52,615 nucleotides of DNA from a virus (taxonomy: Duplodnaviria > Caudoviricetes): positions 1 through 52,615 of IMG/VR virus record IMGVR_UViG_3300025115_000016; one strand, written 5' to 3'. Of this stretch, positions 6,824 to 35,814 are shown piece after piece. Position 1 is the stretch's first letter, and each line of letters starts with the position of its first letter. Under the pieces are notes generated by a model, which worked only from the letters and a program-made list of their open reading frames with translations, was not told the DNA's origin and did not search any database. The position numbers were made by a program, and so were the translations under genes.

Positions 6824-7228
6824 TTACTCCAATTCCATCAACGGTTTTATTTTCCACAGTCTTCCATTGCGGACGTAGATTGCAGAGTCATATCGAGCGG
6901 GCGTGATATATGTTTTGCCGAACATCTGCATATTAAAATGTGGATAAAAAATTCTGGGTATATATTCATCATTTTTTTGTTTGAAAGAAATTCGCATTAC
7001 GTTATTGGTAATCTTTATATATCCAAGAGAGTCCCAGATGATAGATACGTATGCAATATCAACTTTGGTATAGTTTTGGGTTCCAACCCACCCAACACTA
7101 TCGACGATAAATATTGTCCCGCGATATGTAGATGTGGATGATGTATCAAAATACAGGTTATTTACCTGTCCATATCCGACAGAGCCGATTAGCAACAGTC
7201 CGGTAAGTAACAAGAGTGTTAGTTTCAT
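6824..7228 (-). CDS. Predicted secreted protein (signal peptide with Gln at +1)
   Basis: MKLTLLLLTGLLLIGSVGYG|QVN. Confidence 0.7.
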   Translation of the reverse strand: MKLTLLLLTGLLLIGSVGYGQVNNLYFDTSSTSTYRGTIFIVDSVGWVGTQNYTKVDIAYVSIIWDSLGYIKITNNVMRISFKQKNDEYIPRIFYPHFNMQMFGKTYITPARYDSAIYVRNGRLWKIKPLMELE

Positions 7229-9074: not shown

Positions 9075-9105
9075 TTGACAAGTCTTCAGAATTTGTTTAA
9101 TTTTG
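9075..9105 (+). promoter_or_regulatory. Host sigma-A type promoter upstream of the terminase genes
   Basis: TTGACA-N17-TAATTTTG. Confidence 0.75.
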
Positions 9106-9400
9106 CATCAGTCAGGATCGACTAATAGTGTAGCGAATCAAGGGTCCTATCCTGCTCGAGAGAGTTTAAGGTTGGCAGTCTGCCCATCTCGTATGGACAC
9201 GGGGTACGAGAGAGCCGCTCCGAGCGTTTGCTGGTTTCGTGAAAGCCAGTCATACTAGTAATAATACTTATCTTAATAAGTACACGGGTTAATACCATAA
9301 GTGTGCCTTTTCTTCTCAAACAAGTCACGTCGAATATATGTATAGTCTCCATAGGTAGATTTGAACCGCGGGTAAAGGACACTTCACCAAAGGGGAGAGA

Positions 9401-10213: not shown

Positions 10214-11705
10214 AAAGGCTCTCTCTCGGCTCGCTTCAGACGTCGTTCTGTTCGGAAAGACAATTGCTCCTCATACCTTTGAATTCGACTCGCCGCCGAT
10301 ACACTACCAGATCACCGGACTGCTGCTCGACAAGACTCTGAAGCTTCTGAACATCATCGCTCCTCGCGGCATAGCCAAGACCACCCTTGCGACCATTTAT
10401 ATCCTTCATCATCTGTTCTTCGACGATCCGGGCAAGAAGAAGTTCGTCGTCATCATCTCCAAGACTCAGCCTCATGCCAAGAGCATCCTTGCTACCGTCA
10501 AGAACATCCTCGAGTACTCAAGGGGATTCCGCCAGCTCTTCGGCTATCACGGGGAACACAATGCAAAGACTTGGAGAGAAGACACCATTGTGCTCGATAC
10601 GGGAGACGGCATCGTCACCAGAGGTACGGGACAGCCTGTACGCGGACTGAACCTTCTGTCTCAGCGTCCGACGCTCATCATCATCGATGATCCGGAGGAC
10701 GAGAACAACACCAAGACCATCGAGATGATGGACAAGAACCTTACGTGGCTCTTGAACGGAGTCGTTCCTTCGGTCGATGCGATGCGCGGAAGAGTCATCT
10801 GCATCGGAACTCCGCTTCACGAGAAGTGCATCGTCTCCATGCTCTCGCAGATGAGGAACTGGACGACCTTCCACTACGGGAACGACATCGAAGCAGGCGT
10901 CGCCCTGTGGCCGGAAACAAGGTCGCTTGAGTGGCTCACGCTTGAACTCGAAGCAAAGCGCGACGTCGGACTTGAAAGACAGTACTATCAGGAGTACGAA
11001 TGTAAACTCATTCCGGGATCCGATGCGATGTTCAAGCCGGACTACATCCGCTACTACGACGAAGAGATGAAACTCGTCGGGGATCCGATGGAACGATACC
11101 TTGAATTCTCCGGAGTGAGGATTCCCGTCAACGTGTATATGGGGATCGATCCCGCTTCCCGCGTAGAGAAGAGCGCGGACTATTCGGTCATCATGCCCGT
11201 CGCGGTGGACAAAGACTTCAACATCTACGTCCTTCCGTACTTCCGCGCAAGAGTCACTCCGCTGGACCTCGCCAATGCGATCGAAGACTACTACAAGACG
11301 TACATGCCGGCTCTGACACTCATCGAGTCGACAGGGTATCAGGAGATGCTCCGCCAGTACATGCGCACGAAGATGTTCATTCCCGGTCTTGAGATCAAAG
11401 AGAATCCCAGGGACAAGAAGTCCGTCAGGCTTGAGATGCTTCAGCCGTTCTTCGCTCAGGGAAAAGTCTTCATCTCCAAGAGGATGGAAGACCTGCGAAT
11501 GGAACTCATTATGTATCCGAAGTCAAAACACGACGACCTTCTCGACGCACTGTTCTATGCGGTCAAGAGGGCCAGGGCGGCGGCTCACGTGGTCTATGAA
11601 CAGCCGGAGCAACTGCCTGAACATCATCAGGTCCTGATCGAGTACTACAAACAGGAAGAACCCCTGGACGACTTCTTTGCAGCCGACGACGAGGATTTCA
11701 TTTGA
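10191..11705 (+). CDS. terL: Terminase large subunit
   Basis: Walker A APRGIAKT, Walker B LIIIDDPE, coupling motif IGTP, nuclease motifs GIDPA...DYS...HDDLLDA. Likely start ATG 10191. Confidence 0.95.
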   Translation: MPPSSSLKKALSRLASDVVLFGKTIAPHTFEFDSPPIHYQITGLLLDKTLKLLNIIAPRGIAKTTLATIYILHHLFFDDPGKKKFVVIISKTQPHAKSILATVKNILEYSRGFRQLFGYHGEHNAKTWREDTIVLDTGDGIVTRGTGQPVRGLNLLSQRPTLIIIDDPEDENNTKTIEMMDKNLTWLLNGVVPSVDAMRGRVICIGTPLHEKCIVSMLSQMRNWTTFHYGNDIEAGVALWPETRSLEWLTLELEAKRDVGLERQYYQEYECKLIPGSDAMFKPDYIRYYDEEMKLVGDPMERYLEFSGVRIPVNVYMGIDPASRVEKSADYSVIMPVAVDKDFNIYVLPYFRARVTPLDLANAIEDYYKTYMPALTLIESTGYQEMLRQYMRTKMFIPGLEIKENPRDKKSVRLEMLQPFFAQGKVFISKRMEDLRMELIMYPKSKHDDLLDALFYAVKRARAAAHVVYEQPEQLPEHHQVLIEYYKQEEPLDDFFAADDEDFI

Positions 11706-16313: not shown

Positions 16314-17699
16314 ATGGCAACCATCACCGAACCTCGGACCCTGAGCAGAGGGCTTGACGATTCCACCGGCTTATCCGGGATTCTATTCACAGATCAGCGG
16401 CAATTCTACGTCAACCCTTTTCAGTATTCCGAACTCTGGCAATCAGCCACACCTTTCATCTCGGCAATGATCGAGCGGGCAAAGGTCATCACAAACCTTC
16501 CCGATCCGCTCTTCAAAATGTTCGAGCATGAAAATCCGTGGCGCAAACAGGAACTTGTCGTCGGAACAGGCGGCACGATTCCTAATGACGACACCGGTCT
16601 TGTCAATACGATCATCTTCGCATCGGCAACCGGACTGTTCTCAACCCAACACGTTTCCCTGAAGAACCTCATGTTCGAAGTATGGGATGCGACCAAGACG
16701 ACCAAGCGCGGCGTCGCTCTCTGTACGGGAGTCGGCTCAACCACAACGATGAACTTCAAGTCGATGAAAGCAGCGACCATCGCAGTGGAAACAGGCGACA
16801 TCTTCGTATGCATCGGCAGCGCGTATGGAACCGGCTCGGAAGCAGGCGAAGCGTGGGCGGACGATCTGAAGGTCGTATGGGGTTCCACGGGCATCCATCG
16901 TACTCCGGTGGAGATCGAAGGAACGCTTCTGGAAGCATCGCTTCGCGGTGCGAACAAGGAGCTTTCCCGTCTGCGTCTTCAGAAGTTGTACGAACACAAG
17001 ATCAACGAAAACCGGCGCCTCATGCGTTCGGTCAACCTGATCGGAACGAACCTGAAGAACAACGAATCGTTCACGGATAAAACCCGTACGGGCGCAACGA
17101 ACGGTTTGGGCGGGACATTCACACCGGCCAACCGCGTACGTACCCCTTACGGTCTGATACCGATGATCGAAGACTACGGGTCTGAAAGCGAAGACGACGA
17201 CACGCAAAATGTGTTCAATCGGAGCGGCGGACTTCAGTGGAATCAGTTCGTTGACGACGCCGAGAAGGTCATGCAGTACCAGAACTACGACGGTATGCGC
17301 GACTTCTTCGTCGGTCCGAAAGCAATGTCCTACTTCTCGAAGATCGATACTCAGGCGACCAACACCCGTCTGAAACTCGGCTTCGACATCAAGATGTCGG
17401 AAATGAGAAACAGCAAGCCCAACAGCCAGGGCTACAACTTCCGGTATCTCGAAACTCCGTTCGGCATCTGGCGCTTGATCCTCGATCCTTCGATGAAGTT
17501 CGAGTACAGCAACTACATGGTTTCTCCCACGTGGAACAACCTGTACTATGCTGTCTATCGCAGCTTCGTCTGGAAGACCGCCATCAAGGACAGCAAGTTC
17601 AATGGCTACGATGGAGTTAAGGACGAATATTTCAACGACACCGGTGTCGGTGCGACTCTCATCAAGTCACACTGCATCTACAAAGTGCCTACGGCATAA
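16314..17699 (+). CDS. Major capsid protein (HK97 fold)
   Basis: 461 aa after the scaffold; TPFISAM, FKMFEHE, TGIHRTPVEIEGT, HKINENRRLM, ETPFG; strongly biased codons. Confidence 0.85.
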   Translation: MATITEPRTLSRGLDDSTGLSGILFTDQRQFYVNPFQYSELWQSATPFISAMIERAKVITNLPDPLFKMFEHENPWRKQELVVGTGGTIPNDDTGLVNTIIFASATGLFSTQHVSLKNLMFEVWDATKTTKRGVALCTGVGSTTTMNFKSMKAATIAVETGDIFVCIGSAYGTGSEAGEAWADDLKVVWGSTGIHRTPVEIEGTLLEASLRGANKELSRLRLQKLYEHKINENRRLMRSVNLIGTNLKNNESFTDKTRTGATNGLGGTFTPANRVRTPYGLIPMIEDYGSESEDDDTQNVFNRSGGLQWNQFVDDAEKVMQYQNYDGMRDFFVGPKAMSYFSKIDTQATNTRLKLGFDIKMSEMRNSKPNSQGYNFRYLETPFGIWRLILDPSMKFEYSNYMVSPTWNNLYYAVYRSFVWKTAIKDSKFNGYDGVKDEYFNDTGVGATLIKSHCIYKVPTA

Positions 17700-17716: not shown

Positions 17717-18271
17717 ATGAAGAAGCTATTAACAGTAATCCTTCTTGTGCTTGTTGCGTTCTCTTTCGCACAGGCACAGAAACCTTGGGTTGAAGGGAAC
17801 ATCGTCGGCGTCAAAGCATTCATGACCGGAAAGGTCTCGCTTGCTCTGGCCGACACCGCGACCTGCGACACGACCAAGGGAACAAGCGCCATCAACAGCG
17901 CCACGCTCTCCGGAGCAGCGATCAACCGAAAGAACATCCTCGTCGGATGGCAGGTGGTTGATACTGCAATCGCCGGAACGACAACGACCAATCCTACCGC
18001 ACGCATCGACGTTCAGGCGTCGTTCAACGGTACGTACTGGTTTCCTGTCAAAGACAGCGCAGTGACGAGCAAGGCGTTCAACAGCAAGGCCGCAACAGGG
18101 ATCCGCGGAGGCGGGTTCTTGACAGAGGTCGATGCAACGAGCTGGCAGTATCCGTACTACCGGCTGGTGCTGACGCCCACAAACGGCACTCTTGGAACTC
18201 AATCGACCGGCATCACTTCCGCCATTTGGAAGGTCGGACGGTTCCGTTTCGTAGTTGTACCGAAGTTCTAA
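17717..18271 (+). CDS. Signal-peptide-bearing beta-rich protein at the capsid-decoration position
   Basis: MKKLLTVILLVLVAFSFAQA|Q; VQASFNGTYWF...YPYYRLV resembles small jelly-roll-type phage accessory proteins. Lies between the capsid gene and its terminator. Confidence 0.75.
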   Translation: MKKLLTVILLVLVAFSFAQAQKPWVEGNIVGVKAFMTGKVSLALADTATCDTTKGTSAINSATLSGAAINRKNILVGWQVVDTAIAGTTTTNPTARIDVQASFNGTYWFPVKDSAVTSKAFNSKAATGIRGGGFLTEVDATSWQYPYYRLVLTPTNGTLGTQSTGITSAIWKVGRFRFVVVPKF

Positions 18272-18305
18272 GGGGGTGGGGAGGGTAACCTCCCCCTTCT
18301 CTCTA
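18272..18305 (+). terminator. Hairpin terminator after the capsid unit
   Basis: GGGAGG-GTAA-CCTCCC followed by a pyrimidine run. Confidence 0.6.
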
Positions 18306-18325
18306 CCTAAACAAACGAGGTTCCT

Positions 18326-19132
18326 ATGGCAGAAGTTATGTGGAGAACGCACGTTGAATCGCTTATTCAAACGGACCTTTCCCCCTTGAACGATCAGGCA
18401 AGCCTGTGGCTGAATCAATCCGCGCGTAAACTCCTGAACGTGGCACGCATCGACGATCCTGAACTCAAGCCGACAAAGAATACCGATAGTGGGACCGGAG
18501 TATCCATTGCGTACGACAACCGGGTTCTGTTTGCGGAAAAGAACGGACGCAGATGTTTGGTCGCACCGCAGGCAGACTATGGGAAATATGCCGATACAAA
18601 CAGCCTGATGCAGGCTCACGCATACACACCCGTTCTCGTCGTCAAGGACGACGGCAAGGCGTATGTATTGCCGTTGGGCGGCAACGTCTATACGATCAGC
18701 GCAGCAGCATACGACGACATTACCGATACAAACAATGCAGGGCTGTGGGGATCGTCCTCTCTTGGCAATCTTGCTATTATCGACGCCGCATTGCAGGCAA
18801 TGGGATACCTTATTGGAGTGCTTGAGGCAGACAGCCTCGACACCCAGTACGGCGCCCTGGACAGCGAGTACGCATCCTTATTAACGCAATATACCGCTCT
18901 GGCAACCGACCTCGACACCCAGGAAGACGTTGAACTTGCAACAGCCAAACTTAACGAGATCGGAACGAGACTTCAGGAAATGAAGGTCCGGCTGGATGCG
19001 CGTCTTGCCGACATCAAGAGCCGCATGGAGCTCTCAGGAATGAGCGTCGCCGGATACAAGGAGAAACTCGGAATGCTCAAACTGCGCTTCGACGAAGAAC
19101 TCAAACTTTATCTTATGAGGTCAATACAATGA
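18326..19132 (+). CDS. Putative head-tail adaptor / ring protein
   Basis: Position; N-terminal helix pair, beta core and C-terminal coiled coil. Confidence 0.55.
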   Translation: MAEVMWRTHVESLIQTDLSPLNDQASLWLNQSARKLLNVARIDDPELKPTKNTDSGTGVSIAYDNRVLFAEKNGRRCLVAPQADYGKYADTNSLMQAHAYTPVLVVKDDGKAYVLPLGGNVYTISAAAYDDITDTNNAGLWGSSSLGNLAIIDAALQAMGYLIGVLEADSLDTQYGALDSEYASLLTQYTALATDLDTQEDVELATAKLNEIGTRLQEMKVRLDARLADIKSRMELSGMSVAGYKEKLGMLKLRFDEELKLYLMRSIQ

Positions 19133-19833
19133 CGACTCAACACATCATCGACCTTGTACACATTCATCATCCCAACCTCGGCGTAAGCCTTCTCGTTTCT
19201 TTGATCAACGCTTCTCAGAGGCGCTTTGTAAAGGAGTCCTACTGCCTTCCGGTAACCCAGCAGCTTCTCATCGGAGCGGGCAACGTGATCTTAAGCGGTT
19301 CAACCAGACTAAACCTCATTGAACTGAACAACTCAGACAGCTCCTTTACTCTTGAAGCCTATAAGGACGATACAGCTGATACCATCACGATAATTCCTTC
19401 GACATTGGTACTGTTCTATACGGGATTCACTCAGAGGGCCGCTGACGGACACATTATCAACGTCATATCGGTAATGATCAATGAGGACGGTACGGTGTAC
19501 TTCTACGATCAGTACGGCAACGGCATCAGCGAATTTCCAAGCGACCTTGCCTACCTGGACGTACACTATGTGGCGGTTCCTACGACGTTGACCACTACGA
19601 CGTTGACAACTGCATTGGACATCGATCAAGACTATCGGGAAGCGATCGCCAACGAGATCATCGGGAACTACTATGTCGGTAAACAGGGAATGCCTGCGCT
19701 GGATCAACTGACGACTGCCAAGCACTTCAAGAACCTGTATCTCGAGCAACTCAACAAGGCGCGTTCATACTATCGCAAGAGTAAGAGTACGATCAGTGTG
19801 ACGGTGCCTGCATCAGAGGAATTCTCCTCGTGA
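19129..19833 (+). CDS. Putative tail adaptor / ring protein
   Basis: MTTQHIIDLV...LINASQRRF...HYVAVP...LDIDQDYREAI, typical of podovirus adaptors. Confidence 0.65.
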   Translation: MTTQHIIDLVHIHHPNLGVSLLVSLINASQRRFVKESYCLPVTQQLLIGAGNVILSGSTRLNLIELNNSDSSFTLEAYKDDTADTITIIPSTLVLFYTGFTQRAADGHIINVISVMINEDGTVYFYDQYGNGISEFPSDLAYLDVHYVAVPTTLTTTTLTTALDIDQDYREAIANEIIGNYYVGKQGMPALDQLTTAKHFKNLYLEQLNKARSYYRKSKSTISVTVPASEEFSS

Positions 19834-21011
19834 CGAGACTCGGAAGAACAATCGATGAACTCGACGAACTTTCTCTCGGAAGCATCTCCGATGCGTCGCT
19901 GCTTGCCATGCGCGACATGTCCTTGCCGAAGACTCACCCAAACGCCACAAAGTACTTCTCTGTCGCCGCACTCAAGTCCCTGATCGCTGCTATCGGGGAC
20001 TCCGCACTCCGCAAGGGGACGGTCTCGCTGACAGCGAACACTCCGACGTCGGTAGTCTTCTCTCAGCCGTTTACGAATCCATACTTCCTTGCCGTCAAAC
20101 GAGGTGAAGACTCCGCCGGCAGTCAGATAGGATGCGTTGTCAGCGAAGAAGGACAGGGCGGCTTCACGGTCACAGCAATGGAAGACTGCACGTTCTACTA
20201 CCTTGCCGTACAGAACATCGTGGGGATCGATCTTGAAGACATCATCTCTCCGGTTGACATTACCGACGTTCAGGACGACGACATACTTCGATATGATGCA
20301 TCGGAGGGAGTATGGAAGAATGTTCAACTTGAATCCGGCGACGCCAATGATCCTGGCGATATTTTTTTTATCAGAGATGACTTTGCTATTGGCAACGCAA
20401 CTTCCGGCAACGTCGGAGAACTCAGGTGGAGCTGGGCTACATCCATTGGCGGCAATGCGGTGCGACTCATTGATGAGATTGGTGCGATCGGACTATTTCA
20501 ACTGCAAACAGGGGCACAGCTCGCAAGCAATATAAGACTGTACTCTTTAGGCACAGGGCTTACGTTGAAATTTATACCTACTCAGCCGAATCAAACGCTG
20601 AAATGGAGAATTAAACTTGGACAGGCATCGGGAGCTCTGTTCAATGCGTACATCGGACTCGCTCAGGATTACGATACTCCCACGGGTGGAGGCAAAGACT
20701 TTGTTGGATTTCAATACTCTGCAAACAATGCAAATTGGCTATGTGTTTGTACGACGAGTTTCAGCGGTACAGAGCATACCAACAGCGGTGTTCCCGTTTC
20801 TACCGATTGGGTCACACTTGAGATCAGAACGAATTCGGATGCAACAGCGTACCAATTTTATATCAATGGCAATCTCGTTGTTACCCGCACAACCGATCTT
20901 CCATCTGCGACGTCCTGTTCTCCGCTTGTATGGCTTGGGAATACAGAGACAGCCGGAAAGACGCTCACGGTAGATTATTTCTACTATAAAATTACAGGGC
21001 TAACAAGATGA
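19830..21011 (+). CDS. Tail fibre with a C-terminal lectin-like beta-sandwich
   Basis: Fibre motif DITDVQDDDILRYDASEGVWKN; WVTLEI...FYING...LTVDYF. No signal peptide. Confidence 0.7.
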   Translation: MTRLGRTIDELDELSLGSISDASLLAMRDMSLPKTHPNATKYFSVAALKSLIAAIGDSALRKGTVSLTANTPTSVVFSQPFTNPYFLAVKRGEDSAGSQIGCVVSEEGQGGFTVTAMEDCTFYYLAVQNIVGIDLEDIISPVDITDVQDDDILRYDASEGVWKNVQLESGDANDPGDIFFIRDDFAIGNATSGNVGELRWSWATSIGGNAVRLIDEIGAIGLFQLQTGAQLASNIRLYSLGTGLTLKFIPTQPNQTLKWRIKLGQASGALFNAYIGLAQDYDTPTGGGKDFVGFQYSANNANWLCVCTTSFSGTEHTNSGVPVSTDWVTLEIRTNSDATAYQFYINGNLVVTRTTDLPSATSCSPLVWLGNTETAGKTLTVDYFYYKITGLTR

Positions 21012-24000
21012 AAAATAAATTAGCATTGATATTTATACTGCTTTGTTCGATTTCCTATTCGCAGACGACGATCAAGATCAAAGCTCTGTACACCGACACT
21101 CTTCGCTCGAATATGGATACGGTACGCGTACAGTCGTATACGAGGTTCTATCGTCCTGCGTTCTTCGACTCGACGGTCAGGTTTCTTCCTTCGGCTTTAT
21201 TCAGATCTTCTTCCGACACCCTGGCAACGAGAGCATACGCGCGTTCTATTTCCGGTTCCGGCAGTGGGAGCGACGCACTTTTAGACTCGCTCCAAAGGCA
21301 CACAGACACACTGCTTGCTCACAACATCAGGATCAACGCAAAGCAAGATGCAAGCCAGAACCTAACGGACATCTCTTCCGCATCTACCGGGGATGACTTT
21401 CTACTTCAGTATGTTTCCGGAGCGGGAGCATGGGTCGGAAGAACTCCCGCGCAAGTAGCGTCTACAATGGGATTGAACTCTGCTTCGTACGTTGACTCTC
21501 TTCGTCTGATGACGCTCGATAAGACAGAGACCGCAACCGGACTAAAGACATTCGTCGAAGGAATTCTTGTCGGGGTGGCTGCTAACGATCAGGGCTATGT
21601 ATCGTTCTCAAATCCTACGACGACGAACCGTGTGGTACTTCAGTCTGCCACTGCAACAGCAACGAGGACGCAGACTCTTCAGAACAAATCCGGGACAGTG
21701 ATGCTCACCTCAGACACAACGTCTCTTTCCAACAGGATCAACGCTGTTCCCGATTCTTCTTACTACGTCACCAAGGGCACAACACAGGTTCTTACCGCTA
21801 CGAAGTATTTTACAAGGGGCATAAATACTGATACAATACGTTCTACCAACCCATCAGTAGGAATAAAAATGGATGGTTACTTTGATACACAAGATGCACC
21901 TGTAAAATTTGGAAGAACGAGCGTATATGGTGGAAGTATTGAATTGATAAGTGGTAGTCTCACATCCAAATCTTCGGTGATTGATTTTCAGGGCGTTGGA
22001 AATCAAGCACATACATTTCCAGACGCAAGCGGAACGCTGGCGCTTGTTGCCGATTCTGCCATAGTAGCCGCAGGTTACGGTCTTGACCTATCTCAATCGT
22101 TGCACACGTTCACGTTGACCGTTGACACTACGAATGAGATAGCGACGCTGTATGATGTATCGCAGAAACTCAACTCTGCCGACACCACATCATTGTCTAA
22201 TCGCATAAACCTAAAACTCACAGCATCCGATACAGCGTATTTCGTTTCGGTGGCAAAGCAAAATGCAACAACGCGGTTTGACTCTGTTCAGATCGGATTG
22301 GCTACCGCATACGGTGGGGTTATCAGAATGACGGACGGTGCAAGCGGGGTGCTTCGGATTGTTTCACCGCTAATATATTCTGGCGATTACATTGATACCC
22401 TTCCCAATGCAAGCGGAACATTTATGCTTCGGGGTGATACTTTGTCCTTGTCAAACAGGATCAACACGAAACTTAATGCATCCGATACAGCGTATTTCGT
22501 ATCAGTGGCAAAACAAAACGCCTCGACACGGTTTGACTCTGTTAGAGTCGGTAAAGAGCAAGAGGTTGAGGGTTCTATTCTTTTTAGCGACGGCGGTAAC
22601 GATTGGGGTAAATTGTATATTGGGAATTTATCTTCAGATAAAACATGGAGATTGCCCGATTCAACGGGAACGGTTGCGTTACTATCAAATCTACAACCGA
22701 TACCAAATCCCCTGTATCTTGGAAACGGCTCAGAGGCAGGTGAAATTATATTAAATTCTGGAACTGGTGAAGCACCGCAATCTTATACTCGCATAAGTTC
22801 TACACATAATACGGGCGATACAATCTTTATATCGTTCCCAATAGAATCAGGCGATCTGATGTTGCGGAGCGATACAACTTCATTAAATGACAGGATAAAC
22901 TTAAAACTTAACTCTTCTGACACAACTTATTTTGTCTCAAGAGGAAAGCAGAACAACAATACTTCCTTTGACACTGTTCTTGTTGGTATTTCATCTGCAC
23001 AAACAGGCGGTGTGAAATTCTCCGACGGTGCATCTGGCTATGGTATTTTAACAAACAAGAACGGTGCTAACGGGAAGGTGTGGACGTTACCCGACAGCAG
23101 CGGAACTCTTGCACTCAAAGAATATACGCTTAATCCGACACAGGTCGGAACTGCCTCTTACATGGATTCCAACCGTGTAGTAACAAACGATGAACAGAAC
23201 ACAAGAACACGCTTCGACTCGATACAGGTCGGACTTGCAACGGCACATCGTGGCTCTGTTGTGTTTACCGATGGTGCAAGTGGTAGTGGAAGGGTTGTTG
23301 CGCCGCTTATTTGGACTGCCTATCACACACAGACACTTCAAGATAAGTCTGGAAATATAATGCTGACTTCCGATACCGTATCTTTATCAAATCGCATTGA
23401 TACAAAATTTGCGAAATCAGATACGACATATCTTCACGCCTTAAAATTTGCAAACATTACTGATTCATTGTTGGCACATAGAAATTATATGGGGGCAAAC
23501 AGAGACTCGATTAAAAGGCACACGGATAGTTTGCTGTCTCACAACACAAGAATTAACGCAAAACAAAATACGATCCCGAACCTTGCGGATACGTCAAAAT
23601 ATATCGAATATGCCGACACAACGCTGTCGATCGCTATGCAATGGGAACTCAATAGAAAGTTGTGGATTACTGATACAACAGGTAAGTGGGCACCGAAAGG
23701 GATTTATATATTTCCTTCCGATACCGTATCTTTGTCTAATCGCATAAACCTGAAACTTAACGCAAGCGATACAGCGTCTCTTTCCAATAGAATAAATCTG
23801 AAACTTAACGCAAGCGATACAGCGTCTCTTTCCAATAGAATAAATCTGAAACTCAACGCATCTGACACAACTTATTTTGTCTCAAGAGGAAAGCAGAACA
23901 ACAGAACACGCTTCGACTCGATACAGGTCGGACTTGAAACGGCACATCGTGGCTCTGTTGTGTTTACCGACGGTGCAAGTGGTAGTGGAAGAGTTGTTGC

Positions 24001-27000
24001 ACCGATTACTTGGAGTGCCTATCACACACAGACGCTTCAAGATAAGTCTGGAAATATAATGCTGACTTCCGATACCGTATCTTTGTCTAATCGCATAAAT
24101 CTGAAACTCAACGCAAGCGATACAGCGTCTCTTTCCAATAGAATAAATCTGAAACTTAACGCAAGCGATACCAACAGAATTGTAACCATTGACAAAGACC
24201 AATTAAGCATATCTGGCAAAAAGGGATTCTCCGACTCAATTTATGTCGGAACAGAACAGATTAGTGCTGGTGTGGTATATTTCTCTGATGGCGGGCAAAA
24301 TTGGGGTAGGCTGACACCTGGAAATCTAACCGCAGACAGAACGTGGAAACTTCCCAATGGCGATGGAACTCTTGCATTTACCGCCGATACTTCTTTGATG
24401 CTTCAAAACCCGTTGTATCTTGGTAATGGCGGTGAAGCAGGTGAAATTATTTTGAACAGTGGAACAGGAGAACCGCAACAGTCGTGGACAAGAATAACAC
24501 CGACCAATGGTGGTGCAAACGATACCGCATATATTCTTTTGCCGTCAAGCGATGGAACTCTTGCGCTTGTCGCCGACTCTGCCGAAGTAGCGGCAGGTTA
24601 CGGTATCTCTGTAAGCCAATCCAATCATACGGCTACGGTGTCGGCGGATTCATCTGTTCTCGTCACCAAAGGCACGACACAGGTTATTACCGCTCCGAAG
24701 CACTATACTCAACCGCAGTTTATCACAACATCATCAGACTCGGCTTTAATCTTATCGCACACAGGAACTACGTCGGCAGGACCGATAATCCCGCTGAGGA
24801 TTGCGATAGCAGGCTCACAGACGGCTTACCCTGAAATCAAGGCAATCAACTACACGCCTACGGGGAATTGGGGGAATATTGGTAATCACTACGGCATCTA
24901 CTCTGACTTGTCTGGTGTTAGTTACGATGATTTATTGGGTGATGAAGGCGCAATTTACGGTAACTCACCGAGTGGTATCGGTGTTCAAGGCGTTTCAACA
25001 AACAATTACGGTGTTTACGGTTCTTCGGTAGGCAGTATCGGTGTTGCTGGTCTTTCAACAAACAGTTATGGTGTTGTTGGTAACTCAGGAAATAACTACG
25101 ACGGCTACTTTATAGATTCAGTCTACGTCGGAAAGAGAATAACCGTTCCAACTGGTTTTGTGGAAGCGGACTCGTTCAGAAGCAATTATGTAACTCGTCT
25201 GACCTCCGGCTCTTGGCACGCTGGACTCGGTGCATCGTCTTTAGGAAACATATCTACTGGTTCAATTACCGGAACGGGTGCAACGGCTGGCGAAGTATTG
25301 TATGAATTTAATAACTCACAGGCAAGGGCGGCAAACAATCGCTCGGCTATTGCATTAAGGTTATCGAACAATTCAAATTCTCGTTTTAGGATTCGGCACG
25401 TTCAGGCATCTGCGACAGACGACGATTCTTACCTTGATTTTCAACAGCCGAACGGTTCAACGATTGCCGTTTTGACAAGGGCGGGGGTATTTACACTCGG
25501 CTCTGTTTCGGGGACTGGCTCAACGGCGTTCAATGCAGGTGCTATCTCTGGCACTACGGGGACGTTTAGTCAGACAAGCGATGGTTTAGAAATAACCCCA
25601 CTAACATTACAAAATAATGCTAATTCCTATGCAACGGCAAGCAGGATAATCATAGCATCTACGAATAACATTGGTGCAAATCAAAATGGGCGGATTGACC
25701 TATTATCGTTTCGCCATACTTCGGGTGCGATGAGTCTTAACTTTTTGTTATCGCCAGGTTCTTCTGTTGCCCCAACATCAAGACTATACATTGACAGTCT
25801 TGGAAATGTGGGAATTGGAACGACAACGCCAAATTCAAAATTACAGGTCAACGGCACACTCTCCGCCACTACGGGGACGTTTACAGGAAATATGCTGTTT
25901 AACAAATCGTCTGGCGATTTAACAACAACGCTTCGAGTGCCAAACCTAACAGATGATAATTACATTGTATTTCAAAAGGCGGGATTATCAAAGTGGGCAT
26001 TGTGGCATCGTGCAAATCAGTTTAGAATTTGGAACTACTCAACAGGAACTACGGCATTAGCAATAGATTCAACTGATAACAGTGTAACGCTGACAGGCGG
26101 ACTCTCCGCCACTACGGGGACGTTCAGCGGTGCTGTATCTATTACTCCATCACCAACAACAAATCCGCACCTAATTGTTCGCTCAAATGTAACTGGTTCG
26201 GGGGCAAACATACAATTAAACAACGCCGAAAACGGGAAATACTATGAGTTTCGTGTTGGCGGTTCATTATCTTCTCTGGGTAATGGGATCTTGGGCGTCA
26301 CAACGCTTGGTGCTGCTGCAACCGTTGTAAAGTGGGACACGTTGGGCAATCAAACTTTAACAGGCGGACTCTCTGGCACTACGGGGACGTTTAGTTCTAC
26401 TGTCCGTGTATCAACCGATGGACAGGGATTTTTGGCATCCGCGTCGTTGACCTCTATGCCCTCTGGAATCAGCAACATTTTCAACAACTTTAACAATAAT
26501 AAGGGGCTGGTGTTACGCAGAACTGGTGCTGGAACGGGTGACTTTATTGATATGCAGAATAGTTCGTCTCTTACCGTTGCTTCTATAAATTCAAGTGGTG
26601 ATTATACGGGCGGTTCTGGTTCGTTCACTACGGGGACGTTCAGCGGTAAAACTCAATCTGGCGGTCTTACTTCCGTCGGTGCTTTCGGTATGGCGAACAT
26701 CGTTGACACAGTTACCTACGCAGGCGTTAACAGCAGTATAGCCGCTAAAAATCTCACATCAACCGCTGGTATGTATCGGCTGACCTACACAATGGCGACA
26801 ACTACGGCGGGGACGGGTGGGACGGTTACGGTTACTCTATCGCACAACAACGGAGCGGCGCAAACATTAACATCGGTTATACAACTTAATTCAACGTCGG
26901 CTGCGTCTGGCGGCGTATCATCGGGACAGTTTGTTTATTACGTCGCAAGCGGGACTCCGACAATATCTACAACTGTCGCGGGTGCATCCGGTTCACCCGT

Positions 27001-27037
27001 TTATCGTCTGGACGCAATATCGGAGAGAATAAAATGA
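21008..27037 (+). CDS. Giant modular fibre/adhesin-like protein with a signal peptide (2009 aa)
   Basis: MKNKLALIFILLCSISYS|Q; DTxSLSNRINLKLNAS repeats; GVxGxS repeats; GNVGIGTTTPNSKLQVNG; TTGTF-delimited modules. Confidence 0.85.
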   Translation: MKNKLALIFILLCSISYSQTTIKIKALYTDTLRSNMDTVRVQSYTRFYRPAFFDSTVRFLPSALFRSSSDTLATRAYARSISGSGSGSDALLDSLQRHTDTLLAHNIRINAKQDASQNLTDISSASTGDDFLLQYVSGAGAWVGRTPAQVASTMGLNSASYVDSLRLMTLDKTETATGLKTFVEGILVGVAANDQGYVSFSNPTTTNRVVLQSATATATRTQTLQNKSGTVMLTSDTTSLSNRINAVPDSSYYVTKGTTQVLTATKYFTRGINTDTIRSTNPSVGIKMDGYFDTQDAPVKFGRTSVYGGSIELISGSLTSKSSVIDFQGVGNQAHTFPDASGTLALVADSAIVAAGYGLDLSQSLHTFTLTVDTTNEIATLYDVSQKLNSADTTSLSNRINLKLTASDTAYFVSVAKQNATTRFDSVQIGLATAYGGVIRMTDGASGVLRIVSPLIYSGDYIDTLPNASGTFMLRGDTLSLSNRINTKLNASDTAYFVSVAKQNASTRFDSVRVGKEQEVEGSILFSDGGNDWGKLYIGNLSSDKTWRLPDSTGTVALLSNLQPIPNPLYLGNGSEAGEIILNSGTGEAPQSYTRISSTHNTGDTIFISFPIESGDLMLRSDTTSLNDRINLKLNSSDTTYFVSRGKQNNNTSFDTVLVGISSAQTGGVKFSDGASGYGILTNKNGANGKVWTLPDSSGTLALKEYTLNPTQVGTASYMDSNRVVTNDEQNTRTRFDSIQVGLATAHRGSVVFTDGASGSGRVVAPLIWTAYHTQTLQDKSGNIMLTSDTVSLSNRIDTKFAKSDTTYLHALKFANITDSLLAHRNYMGANRDSIKRHTDSLLSHNTRINAKQNTIPNLADTSKYIEYADTTLSIAMQWELNRKLWITDTTGKWAPKGIYIFPSDTVSLSNRINLKLNASDTASLSNRINLKLNASDTASLSNRINLKLNASDTTYFVSRGKQNNRTRFDSIQVGLETAHRGSVVFTDGASGSGRVVAPITWSAYHTQTLQDKSGNIMLTSDTVSLSNRINLKLNASDTASLSNRINLKLNASDTNRIVTIDKDQLSISGKKGFSDSIYVGTEQISAGVVYFSDGGQNWGRLTPGNLTADRTWKLPNGDGTLAFTADTSLMLQNPLYLGNGGEAGEIILNSGTGEPQQSWTRITPTNGGANDTAYILLPSSDGTLALVADSAEVAAGYGISVSQSNHTATVSADSSVLVTKGTTQVITAPKHYTQPQFITTSSDSALILSHTGTTSAGPIIPLRIAIAGSQTAYPEIKAINYTPTGNWGNIGNHYGIYSDLSGVSYDDLLGDEGAIYGNSPSGIGVQGVSTNNYGVYGSSVGSIGVAGLSTNSYGVVGNSGNNYDGYFIDSVYVGKRITVPTGFVEADSFRSNYVTRLTSGSWHAGLGASSLGNISTGSITGTGATAGEVLYEFNNSQARAANNRSAIALRLSNNSNSRFRIRHVQASATDDDSYLDFQQPNGSTIAVLTRAGVFTLGSVSGTGSTAFNAGAISGTTGTFSQTSDGLEITPLTLQNNANSYATASRIIIASTNNIGANQNGRIDLLSFRHTSGAMSLNFLLSPGSSVAPTSRLYIDSLGNVGIGTTTPNSKLQVNGTLSATTGTFTGNMLFNKSSGDLTTTLRVPNLTDDNYIVFQKAGLSKWALWHRANQFRIWNYSTGTTALAIDSTDNSVTLTGGLSATTGTFSGAVSITPSPTTNPHLIVRSNVTGSGANIQLNNAENGKYYEFRVGGSLSSLGNGILGVTTLGAAATVVKWDTLGNQTLTGGLSGTTGTFSSTVRVSTDGQGFLASASLTSMPSGISNIFNNFNNNKGLVLRRTGAGTGDFIDMQNSSSLTVASINSSGDYTGGSGSFTTGTFSGKTQSGGLTSVGAFGMANIVDTVTYAGVNSSIAAKNLTSTAGMYRLTYTMATTTAGTGGTVTVTLSHNNGAAQTLTSVIQLNSTSAASGGVSSGQFVYYVASGTPTISTTVAGASGSPVYRLDAISERIK
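23204..24166 (+). repeat. Internal duplications in the fibre gene
   Basis: About 180 bp near-identical at 23204-23384 and 23903-24083; 48-bp tandem units at 23720-23863 (x3) and 24071-24166 (x2). Confidence 0.9.
25552..26640 (+). repeat. Five identical 15-bp repeats CACTACGGGGACGTT separating unique modules
   Basis: Copies at 25552, 25867, 26110, 26377 and 26626. Confidence 0.9.
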
Positions 27038-28056
27038 AAAACATAATTTTACTTTTACTATTTGTTACTGTCGCATATTCTCAGCCATTCTCCCCACGTT
27101 TGAAAGGTTCAAACGGCATTGACTATAAACTCGTCAATCAGACAGCCGTAGGCGACAGTATCATGATAACAGCCGCAGATACCAACAGAATTGTAATGGT
27201 TGATAAAGATCAATACATCGGGGGATTCAAGACATTCTACGATTCCATTGAAGTGGGTGAGCCGCTTAATGTTGTTGGTGTTGTCCGTTTTTCTGACGGT
27301 GATCAGGGAACGGGAAGACTTCTTGGTGCATTGGGTGGAAGCTATAATTGGCGACTTCCCGTCGGTGATGGCACGCTTGCGAGAACATCTGATATTCCAG
27401 TGGTTATTACAGACACCAATCGAATTGTTGATACAGATCAAGCACAGACTATAACTGGTGCAAAGACGTTTAACGCTCGTCCATATCTTTTTGACGGCCT
27501 GAAATTCTACGGCGACTTGAATGACGGTTCATTGGTTTCTCCATCGCTAACCGATATTAGAACTTGGACGCTTCCCAACACAACGGGAACTATTGCTTTG
27601 ACGGACGGAAATCAGAACTTCAACGATGTTGCAAATATCACGGCAGACTCAATAAAAGTATCTGGCGGTATAAACGCAGATAAAATGTCCGACTTTGACT
27701 CCATTCAGGTTGGAATAGCGACGGCGGAGGTTGGTGTTATTCGTCTGTCTGACGGTGCGAGTGGTTATGCAAGAATTTACAATAGTGCAAACTCGGCACA
27801 TATATCCCTTCCATCCGAGAGCGGTGAAATGCTTGTTTCTTCAAGGTCTGGCATAGCAACCGTTGGTGGTGGTGATAGTGTTCAGGTTTCATACACGGGG
27901 TTCACCACTGATGGTATAGTTATGTTGACATACGAGGGTGGTAATATTGCATATACAAAGATTCCCGTCGTTGGATATAAAAGGACTGATGGATTCACAA
28001 TTTACGCAGACGCTTCTTTCAATGTTGCTTGGTTCGTGGTAAAAAAGGGGGATTAA
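27034..28056 (+). CDS. Second signal-peptide-bearing fibre-like protein
   Basis: MKNIILLLLFVTVAYS|Q; shares DTNRIV, FDSIQVG and SDGASG modules with the 2009-aa protein. Confidence 0.8.
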   Translation: MKNIILLLLFVTVAYSQPFSPRLKGSNGIDYKLVNQTAVGDSIMITAADTNRIVMVDKDQYIGGFKTFYDSIEVGEPLNVVGVVRFSDGDQGTGRLLGALGGSYNWRLPVGDGTLARTSDIPVVITDTNRIVDTDQAQTITGAKTFNARPYLFDGLKFYGDLNDGSLVSPSLTDIRTWTLPNTTGTIALTDGNQNFNDVANITADSIKVSGGINADKMSDFDSIQVGIATAEVGVIRLSDGASGYARIYNSANSAHISLPSESGEMLVSSRSGIATVGGGDSVQVSYTGFTTDGIVMLTYEGGNIAYTKIPVVGYKRTDGFTIYADASFNVAWFVVKKGD

Positions 28057-28297
28057 GTGAGTGAGAAGGAGAATTGATTGATATATGGTTTGAGATTGAA
28101 ATATATGTTTGGGATAGTGGATAAAATAATTGGTATTGAGAAAGATATGATGTATTGGAAATGATTTATGTATGGAAAATATTTTGAGTAGATAATGAGT
28201 TGATTTGAGTATATTTGTGGGAGTATTTATATGTGATTGTTCGTTGGAAAATATGTGTGGAAATATGTGAGGATAGAATGAATTGAAAAGAAATATA
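28036..28297 (+). other. C-depleted non-coding tract
   Basis: No C in 28036-28241 and one C (28242) in 262 nt. Confidence 0.9.
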
Positions 28298-28359
28298 CTG
28301 ATGATATACCTATTCTGGCTAATGTGAGGGAGCAAATAAGGGAGTAAATGAGGGAGTAA

Positions 28360-28782
28360 ATGATTTACCTATTTTGGTTCATACATCTTGTCTGCGGTGC
28401 GTTGACTGACGCTCGTATGTGGGGCAAGAAAGAGGACGATCCTGAATGGGTTGCGGAATACACGGATGCCTTTTGGCTTGGATATTTCACATTAAGCCCG
28501 TTCTTGATTGCGTGGCTTGTGTCAATGGGTGTTCCGATACTCTCGTGGGAATCGCTGGCAATCGGTTTCGGTATGTCGGTGTTTTGGGACTTGACGTTCA
28601 CGAAGATTGAACAGGGCAAATGGGTTGCACCGATACCGTTGTGGCTCATCATACCCAATCCCTTCTCAAAAGCGGACACTTGGTATGGACGCAGGATTGT
28701 AATAGGTTTCAACACGGTCAACGGTATGATTGACTTCAACTTGTTCAGGATATTGATTTTATTACTAACACTTATCTTTTAA
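28360..28782 (+). CDS. Multi-pass membrane protein
   Basis: Three to four hydrophobic segments; GGGAG RBS. Confidence 0.7.
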   Translation: MIYLFWFIHLVCGALTDARMWGKKEDDPEWVAEYTDAFWLGYFTLSPFLIAWLVSMGVPILSWESLAIGFGMSVFWDLTFTKIEQGKWVAPIPLWLIIPNPFSKADTWYGRRIVIGFNTVNGMIDFNLFRILILLLTLIF

Positions 28783-28804
28783 CGCAATGCAACAGGGGAA
28801 GAAA

Positions 28805-28945
28805 ATGCCACGCCAAAGTTCACAACAGATGATCGTCGAAGAACTGCGAATAATCCAGAATGACGTGAAGGGTTTATCAGGTTTCAGGGGCGACAATGAA
28901 TTGGAGAGAAATATACTGAGCGCGGTTACTAATATAATCTATTGA
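28805..28945 (+). CDS. Small hypothetical protein (46 aa)
   Basis: Translated by hand: MPRQSSQQMIVEELRIIQNDVKG...TNIIY; GGGGA RBS. Confidence 0.45.
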   Translation: MPRQSSQQMIVEELRIIQNDVKGLSGFRGDNELERNILSAVTNIIY

Positions 28946-28972
28946 CTGTACGGATGCTTTTGTCTAACTTTG
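28942..28972 (+). promoter_or_regulatory. Host sigma-A type promoter for the lysis/tail/ejection genes
   Basis: TTGACT-N17-TAACTTTG. Confidence 0.75.
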
Positions 28973-28989
28973 CATAACGAAACGAAAGG

Positions 28990-29304
28990 ATGATCGAAAT
29001 GTCTTCTTCTAACGGTACTCAGAACTTGCCAACGTGGGCGAAGGTAGCACTCGCTCTCCTGGGAGTAGCCATGACAGCAGGGGGGACATTGGCGACATTC
29101 GCAACGAAAACAGAAGTCTCGGAAGCAAAGATCGAGATGGAACGAAAGATCCTCATTGAAAAGTCGGACCGGCTGGATTGGCAGAAAGACTTCAAGAAGG
29201 ACTATCGTGAGGACATGGATAAAGTACAGAAGAAACTCGACGACATTATTCACGCTCTTGCAGACAAGCAAGATCGGAAAGAAACTCAACGTAACACAAA
29301 ATAA
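28990..29304 (+). CDS. Membrane-anchored coiled-coil protein (holin/antiholin-like)
   Basis: One TM segment plus coiled coil, upstream of the endolysin. Confidence 0.55.
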   Translation: MIEMSSSNGTQNLPTWAKVALALLGVAMTAGGTLATFATKTEVSEAKIEMERKILIEKSDRLDWQKDFKKDYREDMDKVQKKLDDIIHALADKQDRKETQRNTK

Positions 29305-29316
29305 AAGGAGCAATAC

Positions 29317-29712
29317 ATGGATTACCAACAGATGTTCATCTCTCTTGCCAAACTCGGCATCTTCGCGGCGTTCATCGCCGCCACAATCGAAGTAATAAAG
29401 GTAGTCGCTGCGAAAGGACTACTCCTTCTGGTCAAAGAGGTCGTTGTCTCTCTCTGGAGGAATACGGAACTGTCCGCTGAGAGCGTGAAGGTTCTGAACT
29501 TCGTCATCGCCCTGATATACTGCAAGGTCTTCCACTACGGAGTCATGCAGGACATTCTCGGACTCACCTTCAACATGGACAACGGTGGAAGCATGCAGTA
29601 CTTCCTTGACTATGTAGGAACTTCATCCGTCGTCTTCATGGGGGCCGGCTGGTTCTACGACAAGATCATGGAGATCAAAAAGAAAATTGAAACCCCCGTG
29701 GTGAAGAAATGA
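29317..29712 (+). CDS. Putative holin
   Basis: Three hydrophobic segments, charged C-terminus, adjacent to the endolysin. Confidence 0.6.
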   Translation: MDYQQMFISLAKLGIFAAFIAATIEVIKVVAAKGLLLLVKEVVVSLWRNTELSAESVKVLNFVIALIYCKVFHYGVMQDILGLTFNMDNGGSMQYFLDYVGTSSVVFMGAGWFYDKIMEIKKKIETPVVKK

Positions 29713-30032
29713 TATATCTTAAAGACACGGTACGGTTCAAGATCCTTCTGCCGGAGATATGGATTCTCTTTCCGATCATCGACGAGGTGTGGAGAGTGCT
29801 GGCCGGAAAGAATCCTACGATCACCTCTGCGAACGACAGCAGACACGGCACAAAGAGTCTTCATTTCAAAGATCAGGCAATCGACATTCGGTCAAAAGAC
29901 CTGAACGAAGACCAGAAAGACCTCATATTTTCAGAACTCAAGAAGCGTCTCAATCCGATCGGATACGACGTTCTGCTTGAGTATCGAGGACAAGACAATG
30001 AGCATTTTCACGTTGAGTACGATCCCAAATGA
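29709..30032 (+). CDS. Endolysin, peptidase M15-type (Zn)
   Basis: ITSANDSRH...SLHFKDQAIDIR...HFHVEYDP (H-x6-D...HxH). Confidence 0.85.
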   Translation: MIYLKDTVRFKILLPEIWILFPIIDEVWRVLAGKNPTITSANDSRHGTKSLHFKDQAIDIRSKDLNEDQKDLIFSELKKRLNPIGYDVLLEYRGQDNEHFHVEYDPK

Positions 30033-30140
30033 TTACCACACGGAGGACCATGTGGACAGCGGTACCTCCCCCCTTCCACCTTCGTTGAATGAGGGGCCGG
30101 AAGTATTCCGGAACGTAATGGTCCAATACGGAGAACAGCC

Positions 30141-30632
30141 ATGCAGCGTACAACCATAGTCCTCATAATCCTGTGCATAGTATTGGCGCTGTGCACGGGA
30201 TACCTATATCGCAACCAGGGACGCCAAAGTACATCTGTCGTAGGACATGTCATCGAGATACCGGTCGATCTTCCTCCGGTGTACATACAGGGCCCTGCTG
30301 TCCCTTATCCGGTCAAAGACACAACTGATTTTCAAAAGTACTTGGATAGCCTGCTTCGTCAGACTGAGGATCAGAAGGACTCTGCGATCACGAGTTTGTC
30401 TCAGCCATTCAACATCAACGGCGAACAGGGAATCATCAAATACGACATCACTGCGTTTCCTCAACTCAACATGAGAACGATCGAAGCAATCTTCGACGTC
30501 AATCCGTTTAAGGTCGATACGACGTTAATGGACACAACGCTGATCGTAAAGAACAACAGCGATTGGTACGTCTTCACCCTGATCGGTTCGGTAGTGACAT
30601 TCATACTATTGGCAATTACCGGAGGCCTCTAA
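30141..30632 (+). CDS. Spanin-like membrane protein
   Basis: N- and C-terminal TM segments; follows the endolysin. Confidence 0.5.
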   Translation: MQRTTIVLIILCIVLALCTGYLYRNQGRQSTSVVGHVIEIPVDLPPVYIQGPAVPYPVKDTTDFQKYLDSLLRQTEDQKDSAITSLSQPFNINGEQGIIKYDITAFPQLNMRTIEAIFDVNPFKVDTTLMDTTLIVKNNSDWYVFTLIGSVVTFILLAITGGL

Positions 30633-35810: not shown

Positions 35811-35814
35811 TCTT

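Follow-up and report, generated by a model that had tools for sequence, protein, structure and literature searches.

Three proteins encoded among the virion-structure genes of an uncultured tailed phage (Duplodnaviria; Caudoviricetes) are predicted to be exported to the periplasm of a Bacteroidota host and to be glycosylated there. The phage is known as IMG/VR record IMGVR_UViG_3300025115_000016, a complete virus (rated 100% complete in IMG/VR), and the window analysed here is the whole of it, positions 1 to 52,615. The proteins in question are P0001 (184 aa, 17717..18271, + strand), encoded directly after the major capsid protein gene, and two fibre-like proteins, P0002 (2009 aa, 21008..27037, +) and P0003 (340 aa, 27034..28056, +). 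Their N-terminal signal, the glutamine that follows it (Gln+1) and a Bacteroidota O-glycosylation motif are all conserved and all co-vary. That the three are real substrates of Sec and signal peptidase I is well supported by their sequences, because homologues retain signal and Gln+1 while their hydrophobic cores drift and because the motif is enriched only together with the signal; we consider it very likely that the predicted export is real. Predicted periplasmic glycosylation is well supported as well, if not proven. The chance that the exported proteins end up on the virion seems to us about even, and the whole chain, from export through attachment to the virion at lysis, falls somewhat short of that. 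The signals had been pointed out in a first-pass annotation of this DNA; the glycosylation motif, a fourth and a fifth predicted exported protein and the recurrence of the pattern in an unrelated phage lineage are new.

We applied to the 42 curated genes of the window a rule that asks for Lys or Arg in residues 2-7, a hydrophobic 9-mer and small residues at -1 and -3. In its strict form it selects five of them, P0001, P0002, P0003, P0039 and P0038, four with Gln+1. The N-termini of P0001, P0002 and P0003 read M-K-(K/N), followed by 12-16 hydrophobic residues, small residues at -3 and -1 and then Gln; the signals occupy residues 1-20 (nt 17717-17776), 1-18 (nt 21008-21061) and 1-16 (nt 27034-27081), respectively. 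The adaptor-like 234-aa protein, a 268-aa protein and the 393-aa P0040 are not selected. Thus, both sides of the initial observation hold: the three open reading frames (ORFs) do begin with the n-, h- and c-regions of a signal peptide and Gln+1, and the neighbouring adaptors and the 393-aa fibre do not. The annotated starts, which had been singled out for checking, are supported by overlaps in the fibre genes, where the start of P0002 (21008) overlaps the stop of P0040 (21011) and the start of P0003 (27034) overlaps the stop of P0002 (27037). The next in-frame Met lies 35-43 codons downstream in the three ORFs, and in P0001 it would fall within sequence that is kept in homologues. P0001 has two candidate cleavage sites, after residue 18 or 20, either of which would expose Gln; the family alignment, with Gln in the Gln21 column of 13 of the 14 members, favours Gln21 as the mature start. 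According to the accessible part of the source, the Gln+1 rule is specific to Bacteroidetes (PMC5837995). No lipobox is present in the three sequences. A type IX secretion system (T9SS) C-terminal domain was found neither in Pfam (E<=0.01) nor in NCBIfam (E<=10), which leaves room for a very divergent domain; with no C-terminal sorting domain found, we rejected the idea that the proteins are type IX cargo.

The same N-terminal features are found in relatives. The P0001 family comprises 14 sequences, namely four matches among 5.8 billion clusters (P0001 included), one from an IMG/VR contig and nine new relatives taken from the eleven listed by a profile search of 1.84 billion representatives. 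All 14 have M-K/R, a hydrophobic core that varies from member to member and a small-residue cleavage motif. For P0003 there are three relatives, two of them full-length with signal and Gln+1 and the third a fragment. The N-terminal 420 residues of P0002 find 11 large proteins, of which eight start with signal and Gln+1; the starts of the remaining three are doubtful: one appears truncated 5', and another starts within the module that forms the conserved mature N-terminus. In the related contig L089, both the signal and the start of the mature sequence are retained in the P0002 homologue. A further complete relative, G001 (53,182 bp, with terminal repeats), whose capsid protein is 64% (best tblastn segment) or 66% (alignment) identical, encodes a 593-aa fibre-like protein with signal and Gln+1 just before a conserved 1065-aa gene. 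Homologues, to which the first-pass annotation had looked for confirmation, therefore keep the signal in every P0001 relative, in both full-length P0003 relatives and in most P0002 relatives. Repeat modules are common to P0003 and P0002, which are 50% identical over 87 aa (E 2e-18). Searches of PHROGs, Pfam and NCBIfam gave no match for any of the three proteins, including no Pfam match to Peptidase_S74 in P0002 or P0003, and a sequence search of the PDB gave nothing meaningful.

The second mark of export is the glycosylation motif. Bacteroidota glycosylate Ser or Thr in D-(S/T)-(A/I/L/V/M/T), only in non-cytoplasmic proteins; the motif is enriched in the non-cytoplasmic proteins of the phylum, and an engineered motif is sufficient (PMC12871550 and PMC8550257, as far as the accessible text of both goes). 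We compared the motif count of each protein with those of 500 composition-preserving shuffles. P0001 has four motifs against 0.6 expected and P0002 has 47 against 11.4, counts that none of the 500 shuffles reach; the excess is weaker in P0003 (5 against 2.1, reached by 23 of 500). The other two proteins selected by the rule behave alike, P0039 with 3 motifs against 0.35 (7 of 500) and P0038 with 5 against 0.76 (3 of 500). Taken together, the five signal-bearing proteins contain 64 motifs where 15.0 are expected (4.3-fold), and the other 37 proteins 21 where 35.7 are expected (0.6-fold). The enrichment disappears when D is replaced by E or N in control motifs; read backwards, the motif is at expectation in the P0001 family and modestly above it in some fibres. 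These sequons are the best-conserved short motifs of the P0001 family, and for 10 of its 14 members no more than 9 of 500 shuffles attain the count. Of the 47 motifs in P0002, 34 are outside the repeated SLSNRI unit and 41 fall within the first 1200 residues. A non-cytoplasmic location is thus predicted from the signal peptides, with motif enrichment tracking the signal; cleavage at Gln, pyroglutamate and an attached glycan are predictions of the same kind.

P0039 (134 aa, 6824..7228, - strand) belongs to the leftward early block and combines a Gln+1 signal with its three O-glycosylation motifs; it matches no family, and a role in exclusion or in the envelope is possible. P0038 (163 aa, 30141..30632, +) starts with a signal or lipoprotein-like segment and has a membrane helix at its C-terminus, an arrangement that makes it a candidate unimolecular-spanin-like, membrane-tethered protein of the lysis type.

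Signal-bearing and signal-less fibres can also be compared with each other on IMG/VR contigs. The signal-bearing fibre P0029, used as a query, has at least 575 relatives there, from which 80 loci were kept. A signal is present in 12 of the 72 fibre ORFs with a complete 5' end, each time with Gln+1, and the other 60 have ordinary fibre N-termini. When only ORFs with both ends intact are counted, the signal-bearing fibres (n=10) have a motif ratio of 2.67 (1.60-3.39) and the signal-less ones (n=37) a ratio of 0.56 (0-1.35) without any overlap, a comparison in which seven of the ten with a signal are closely related to each other, the query itself is signal-bearing and the signal-less set comes from contigs whose hosts are not identified. 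Since the ratios split by signal among homologous fibres, the motif tracks the signal and not the fibre fold. Signal-bearing fibres share shaft modules with ordinary ones, and Peptidase_S74 (PF13884) is a precomputed assignment on the signal-bearing relatives P0022, P0024 and P0029. The match of P0029 to cultured phages runs only through the C-terminal chaperone domain, to fibres of cyanophages and Pelagibacter phages. As a separate observation, the same shaft modules stand behind at least six N-terminal types on viral contigs (L015, L033, L035, L046 and others); these mosaic fibres form a large pool, this one query matching at least 575 stretches of IMG/VR.

The pattern recurs in a second lineage of phages, represented by six contigs of ~20-35 kb (L008, L010, L013, L020, L021 and L031) whose capsid protein links them distantly to Nonlabens phage P12024L (29% identity, E 3e-8). 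There a signal-bearing fibre ends the structural genes; next come between one and three small proteins with signals, a lipoprotein and a lysozyme-like gene. The small proteins (73-144 aa, with Gln+1 and motifs) are encoded directly after the fibre and before the lysis genes, at 13755-14352 in L008, 11397-11994 in L010, 13177-13753 in L020 and 12924-13358 in L031. In each of five loci of this lineage the motif ratio is 2.9-3.7 for the predicted exported proteins and 0.3-1.0 for the others. The mature N-termini of the fibres are conserved and their distal ends differ; the fibre of L008 ends in the tail-fibre chaperone domain Peptidase_S74 (E 1e-14). P12024L, the nearest cultured relative, has a signal-less fibre at the same position.

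Based on these observations, we propose a particle made in two compartments. Late in infection, Sec would move P0001, P0002 and P0003 into the periplasm, where the cut would expose Gln, the host would cyclise this new N-terminal residue to pyroglutamate and its general O-glycosylation system would modify the D-(S/T)-(A/I/L/V/M/T) motifs. The pyroglutamate step would follow from the behaviour of glutaminyl cyclase, as described in the accessible part of PMC10653852. A DNA-filled particle would be assembled in the cytoplasm from signal-less parts (capsid, portal, adaptor and P0040), and the exported proteins would be peripheral add-on parts, namely distal fibres and, on the capsid, a jelly-roll protein acting as cement or decoration. 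Once holin, endolysin and spanin (cassette at 28990-30632) had merged the compartments, the particle would meet the exported parts, which would dock via their conserved mature N-termini, the fibres possibly on the small anchor- or lectin-like protein encoded just upstream and possibly through glycans. The phage would benefit in that the parts of its virion most exposed to the environment are coated with glycan and blocked at the N-terminus. That there is a widespread class of Bacteroidota phages built in this way, with Sec-exported, host-glycosylated outer parts joined at lysis, we put forward tentatively, with less confidence than the chain for the present phage. Of the compartment-separated maturation suggested in the first-pass annotation, the export part is strengthened by signal, Gln+1 and motif, and loading onto virions is left neither shown nor excluded.

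Several features are consistent with the virion step. P0001 is encoded beside the capsid gene and its modelled jelly-roll fold gives leads towards cement proteins, P0002 and P0003 continue by start/stop overlap the series begun by the tail gene P0040, and their shaft modules are common to ordinary fibres. A signal-bearing relative is predicted to end in Peptidase_S74, and a conserved mature N-terminus with differing distal ends, as read from the alignments, would be the usual pattern of virion attachment. Furthermore, a holin/endolysin/spanin-type cassette follows the fibre genes, and short proteins with the anchor motif are encoded directly upstream of the signal-bearing fibres in L089 and L020. 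In the window, this upstream position is held by P0040 (19830..21011, +), which has no signal, an anchor-like N-terminus and a weak match to ConA-like lectins (Laminin_G_3, E 0.0057, below the cut-off). Its homologue in L089 has 153 aa, overlaps the start of the signal-bearing fibre and gives an H_lectin match below the cut-off (E 0.0018). In L020, the 121-aa protein directly upstream of the fibre has a similar N-terminal motif by eye, its similarity to P0040 being not significant (E 0.34). This arrangement suggests a split into a cytoplasmic anchor and an exported shaft. The candidate lysis genes (28990..30032, +), two small membrane proteins and a 107-aa protein, are read from sequence and have no Pfam or PHROG match; the 107-aa protein contains what we take to be a metallopeptidase-like His/Asp motif, matching no family.

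In the first-pass annotation, the P0001 gene lies between the capsid gene and its terminator. The order is confirmed. P0001 directly follows the capsid gene in the window and in two other phages, L003 and L089, so that synteny is kept, the homologue in L089 carrying an internal stop or frameshift. Seven nt after the P0001 stop there is a G+C-rich hairpin (18278..18295, +) with 7 pairs, 6 of them G-C, a loop of 4 and a weak T-tail. Its identity as a terminator or attenuator is plausible; terminator-like sites are not over-represented in the region (13 against 12.7 in shuffles).

A first model of P0001, built from 4 sequences, reached a predicted local distance difference test score (pLDDT) of 55.7 and was excluded from the fold searches. 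The model based on all 14 sequences (pLDDT 78.9, predicted template modelling score 0.74) has a signal helix followed by a sandwich of eight or nine strands, a jelly roll. Foldseek searches of PDB and BFVD returned only generic jelly rolls, carbohydrate-binding modules (CBMs) and an Eph ligand-binding domain, at template modelling scores of 0.3-0.5, together with small uncharacterised phage proteins. With an exhaustive aligner, the top matches are tied: XepA of PBSX (6i56; Z 8.4, root-mean-square deviation (rmsd) 3.0, 103 residues aligned, 16% identity), a GH115 module (Z 8.0) and the capsid cement protein of phage BPP-1 (3j4u_H; Z 7.9, rmsd 3.0, 114 of 140 residues aligned). In ESM Atlas, both P0001 and its positional counterpart in G001 lead to small viral proteins, with weak leads to Bbp16 (11-21% of cluster members); P0001 itself has no Pfam match to Bbp16. 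The modelled jelly roll is consistent with a capsid cement or decoration protein. A predicted complex of the capsid protein with mature P0001, run without controls, scored 0.00 (mark 0.32), which we weigh neither way. We also considered P0001 as an outer-membrane barrel on account of its aromatic last residue and rejected this, since homologues lose that ending and the model is a soluble jelly roll.

A number of observations weigh against the proposed scheme. Most general is that we know of no tailed phage with Sec-exported virion parts, nor did the literature that we searched on exported virion parts and glycosylated phage particles yield one. For proteins of an uncultured phage, membership of the virion is read from genes, and dilution at lysis would hinder assembly. 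The particle could moreover be complete without the exported proteins, given that signal-less fibre candidates are present, namely P0040 in the window and proteins of 192, 411 and 366 aa in G001; the anchor motif of the 60 signal-less fibre relatives is missing from the signal-bearing ones. In G001, the gene after the capsid gene lacks a signal, no similarity in sequence to P0001 could be detected in its product (BLASTP E 0.023 over 16 residues, hhalign probability 0.06), and the signal-bearing 593-aa fibre is not clearly enriched in motifs (4 against 2.3 expected, reached by 57 of 300 shuffles). The fold scores of P0001 are at a level common among unrelated jelly rolls, with CBMs and XepA tied. 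The signal rule is a heuristic devised for this analysis, not SignalP. Finally, Bacteroidota is a host phylum that we infer, and L089, the sole related contig in the species-genome collection, sits in a bin labelled Candidatus Peregrinibacteria. The label conflicts with the Bacteroidota marks of the L089 proteins and is probably a binning artefact.

Among other explanations, the one that survives best, although we think it unlikely, is that the proteins are exported and glycosylated but never join the particle, being released at lysis as soluble fibre-like binders and a carbohydrate-binding jelly roll. They would then act on neighbours or debris, binding or stripping surface glycans or covering receptors on debris and so sparing the progeny. 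Free, non-virion tailspike enzymes and the receptor blocker Llp of T5 are known. The signal-bearing fibres have lost the usual N-terminal anchor in genomes that also hold signal-less fibre candidates, the fibre and two or three small signal-bearing proteins of the second lineage adjoin lysis genes, and the P0001 model fits cement proteins no better than it fits CBMs and the exported lysis-module protein XepA. However, a conserved mature N-terminal module with swapped distal ends points to a fixed docking partner, and the conserved place of P0001 between capsid gene and hairpin speaks against free release. In addition, a protein of 2009 aa would be a costly accessory, and no enzymatic domain was found in the PHROGs, Pfam and NCBIfam searches.

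Considerably less probable is that the proteins are moron-like components of the envelope of the infected or lysogenic cell, serving superinfection exclusion, receptor masking or adhesion and comparable to Lom and Bor of lambda and Cor of phi80. In the accessible part of PMC10367356, signal genes following the Gln rule in Porphyromonas gingivalis prophages are read as modifiers of the host surface. The early-block protein P0039 would fit such a role, and the lower G+C content of the fibre region suggests acquisition. For the three proteins themselves, however, no route across the outer membrane is visible, as they have neither a detectable T9SS C-terminal domain nor a lipobox; display on the infected cell, the alternative offered by the first-pass annotation, accordingly loses ground. 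Their genes overlap late genes, no notable promoter-like site stands in front of any of the three, and their size and fibre architecture are unlike those of known exclusion proteins. A scan of 10 early or large proteins, from a total of about 42, revealed no integrase.

It is very improbable that the hydrophobic N-termini are not used for export at all, either because folding and trimerisation in the cytoplasm precede Sec or because the phage shuts export down, the segment having another purpose or being tolerated. Nothing direct speaks for this beyond the general rule of cytoplasmic assembly in tailed phages, and Gln+1 and small residues at -1 and -3 are kept across otherwise unrelated families, with a periplasm-specific motif whose enrichment is confined to signal-bearing proteins; if the proteins did not pass through the periplasm, neither feature would persist. 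Least probable of all is an uncleaved signal anchor that tethers the proteins to the inner membrane, for instance as an assembly platform or lysis accessory, for despite the clearly membrane-tethered, lysis-type P0038 and the tie of the P0001 model with XepA, the hydrophobic cores are short (12-16 residues) and followed by the conserved cleavage motif with Gln+1 that marks cleaved signals.

The remainder of the genome is organised as follows. The structural genes form a rightward block from ~9.4 to 45 kb, which includes the large terminase (PHROG 38, E 2e-81), a P22-type portal, the 461-aa major capsid protein without a signal peptide (16314..17699, +; Pfam SU10_MCP, E 3e-8) and a weak match to an SU10 adaptor. 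Replication and recombination genes (DnaB-like helicase, Sak4, resolvase and a ParB-like protein) lie in leftward blocks at both ends of the genome. Capsid protein homologues that are 64-69% identical are present in L003, L005 and L089. No cultured relative was detected by tblastn of the capsid protein, P0001, P0002 and P0003 against 50,697 phage records. Near the end of the rightward block there is a 3113-aa protein (35746-45087, +) without Pfam or PHROG match, which has 2 O-glycosylation motifs where 8.5 are expected; it is kept in G001 (3081 aa) along with the three genes preceding it. G+C content is 0.44-0.48 over the fibre and lysis genes (20000-30000) versus 0.52-0.53 elsewhere in the structural block, which suggests a swapped-in module. 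Downstream of the fibre genes, positions 28057-28359 are 300 bp of non-coding, purine-rich sequence with a strong positive G-C skew and short direct repeats immediately before the next ORF; this may be a promoter or regulatory region. In L089, the capsid gene (9103-11185) is split between residues 1-70 and 71-461 by ~690 bp, in which there is a 167-aa ORF with a LAGLIDADG-like motif (by eye only), so that the insertion may be of the intron or intein type.

Signal-bearing phage proteins as such are not without precedent. The closest case known to us comes from the P. gingivalis prophages, in which phage proteins with Sec signals exposing Gln were likewise read as an adaptation to export in Bacteroidota (PMC10367356). 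In contrast to the present case, the accessible part of that report concerns five genes of unknown function in temperate phages, not reported there as fibre-like or capsid-adjacent; signal-like N-termini of capsid proteins are attributed to removal by the prohead protease and not to export, and no link to the O-glycosylation motif is made. Two Bacteroides rumen phages have 2 and 1 signal peptides in unnamed genes, according to the accessible text of PMC5723332, and target proteins of phage diversity-generating retroelements lack signal peptides (PMC6199706). The word 'phage' does not occur in the O-glycosylation review PMC12871550. More broadly, in the literature that we searched on exported virion parts, glycosylated particles and Bacteroidota glycoproteomes, we found no description of signals on fibre-like and capsid-adjacent proteins, of a coupling between signal and O-glycosylation motif or of a recurrence across phage lineages.

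Better-known systems resemble the present one in part. We found no sequence or fold relation to Lom and Bor of lambda, Cor of phi80 and N15 and Llp of T5, which are, unlike P0002 and P0003, not coupled to structural genes by start/stop overlap. These signal-bearing proteins, several of them encoded in or beside the tail-fibre region, reach the host envelope as small outer-membrane proteins or lipoproteins without fibre architecture. Hoc and Soc and the long fibres of T4, the P22 tailspike and Dec of phage L represent the same classes of parts, with the same kind of gene position, as those proposed here; as far as is known, however, they are made and attached in the cytoplasm without a signal peptide. 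They can be added in vitro to finished particles, so that late and separate attachment is physically possible. Bbp16 of BPP-1 (3j4u_H) is, like P0001, a small jelly-roll protein, and it is not known to have a signal peptide. XepA, the top structural match of P0001, is by its PDB title an exported protein of the defective prophage PBSX, and is presumably encoded in the PBSX lysis module; only one of its domains aligns, its match is tied with those of many jelly rolls, the host is Gram-positive and the gene is not beside a capsid gene. Mycobacteriophage virions bear glycans on exposed proteins, added in the cytoplasm by phage-encoded glycosyltransferases, whereas the route proposed here would be the general O-glycosylation of the host periplasm, reached by Sec export.

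The accepted view is that tailed phages are put together entirely in the cytoplasm and that periplasmic systems of the host leave their fibres and decoration proteins unmodified. Here, two independent marks of passage through the periplasm are found on a class of fibres and on a jelly-roll family encoded next to the capsid gene, and the combination recurs in a second, abundant lineage. The safe reading is one of phage-encoded exported proteins, which are of a known kind. If the proteins do not reach the virion, large glycosylated fibre-like proteins released at lysis would be phage products of an as yet undescribed class. If they do, assembly would be split between compartments, which would be categorically new, and phages of a dominant phylum of gut, marine and soil bacteria would wear glycan coats of host type, with effects on host range, mucus binding, protease resistance and immune recognition. 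Either way, signal and motif together provide a simple, searchable marker by which uncultured phages may be cheaply assigned to Bacteroidota hosts.

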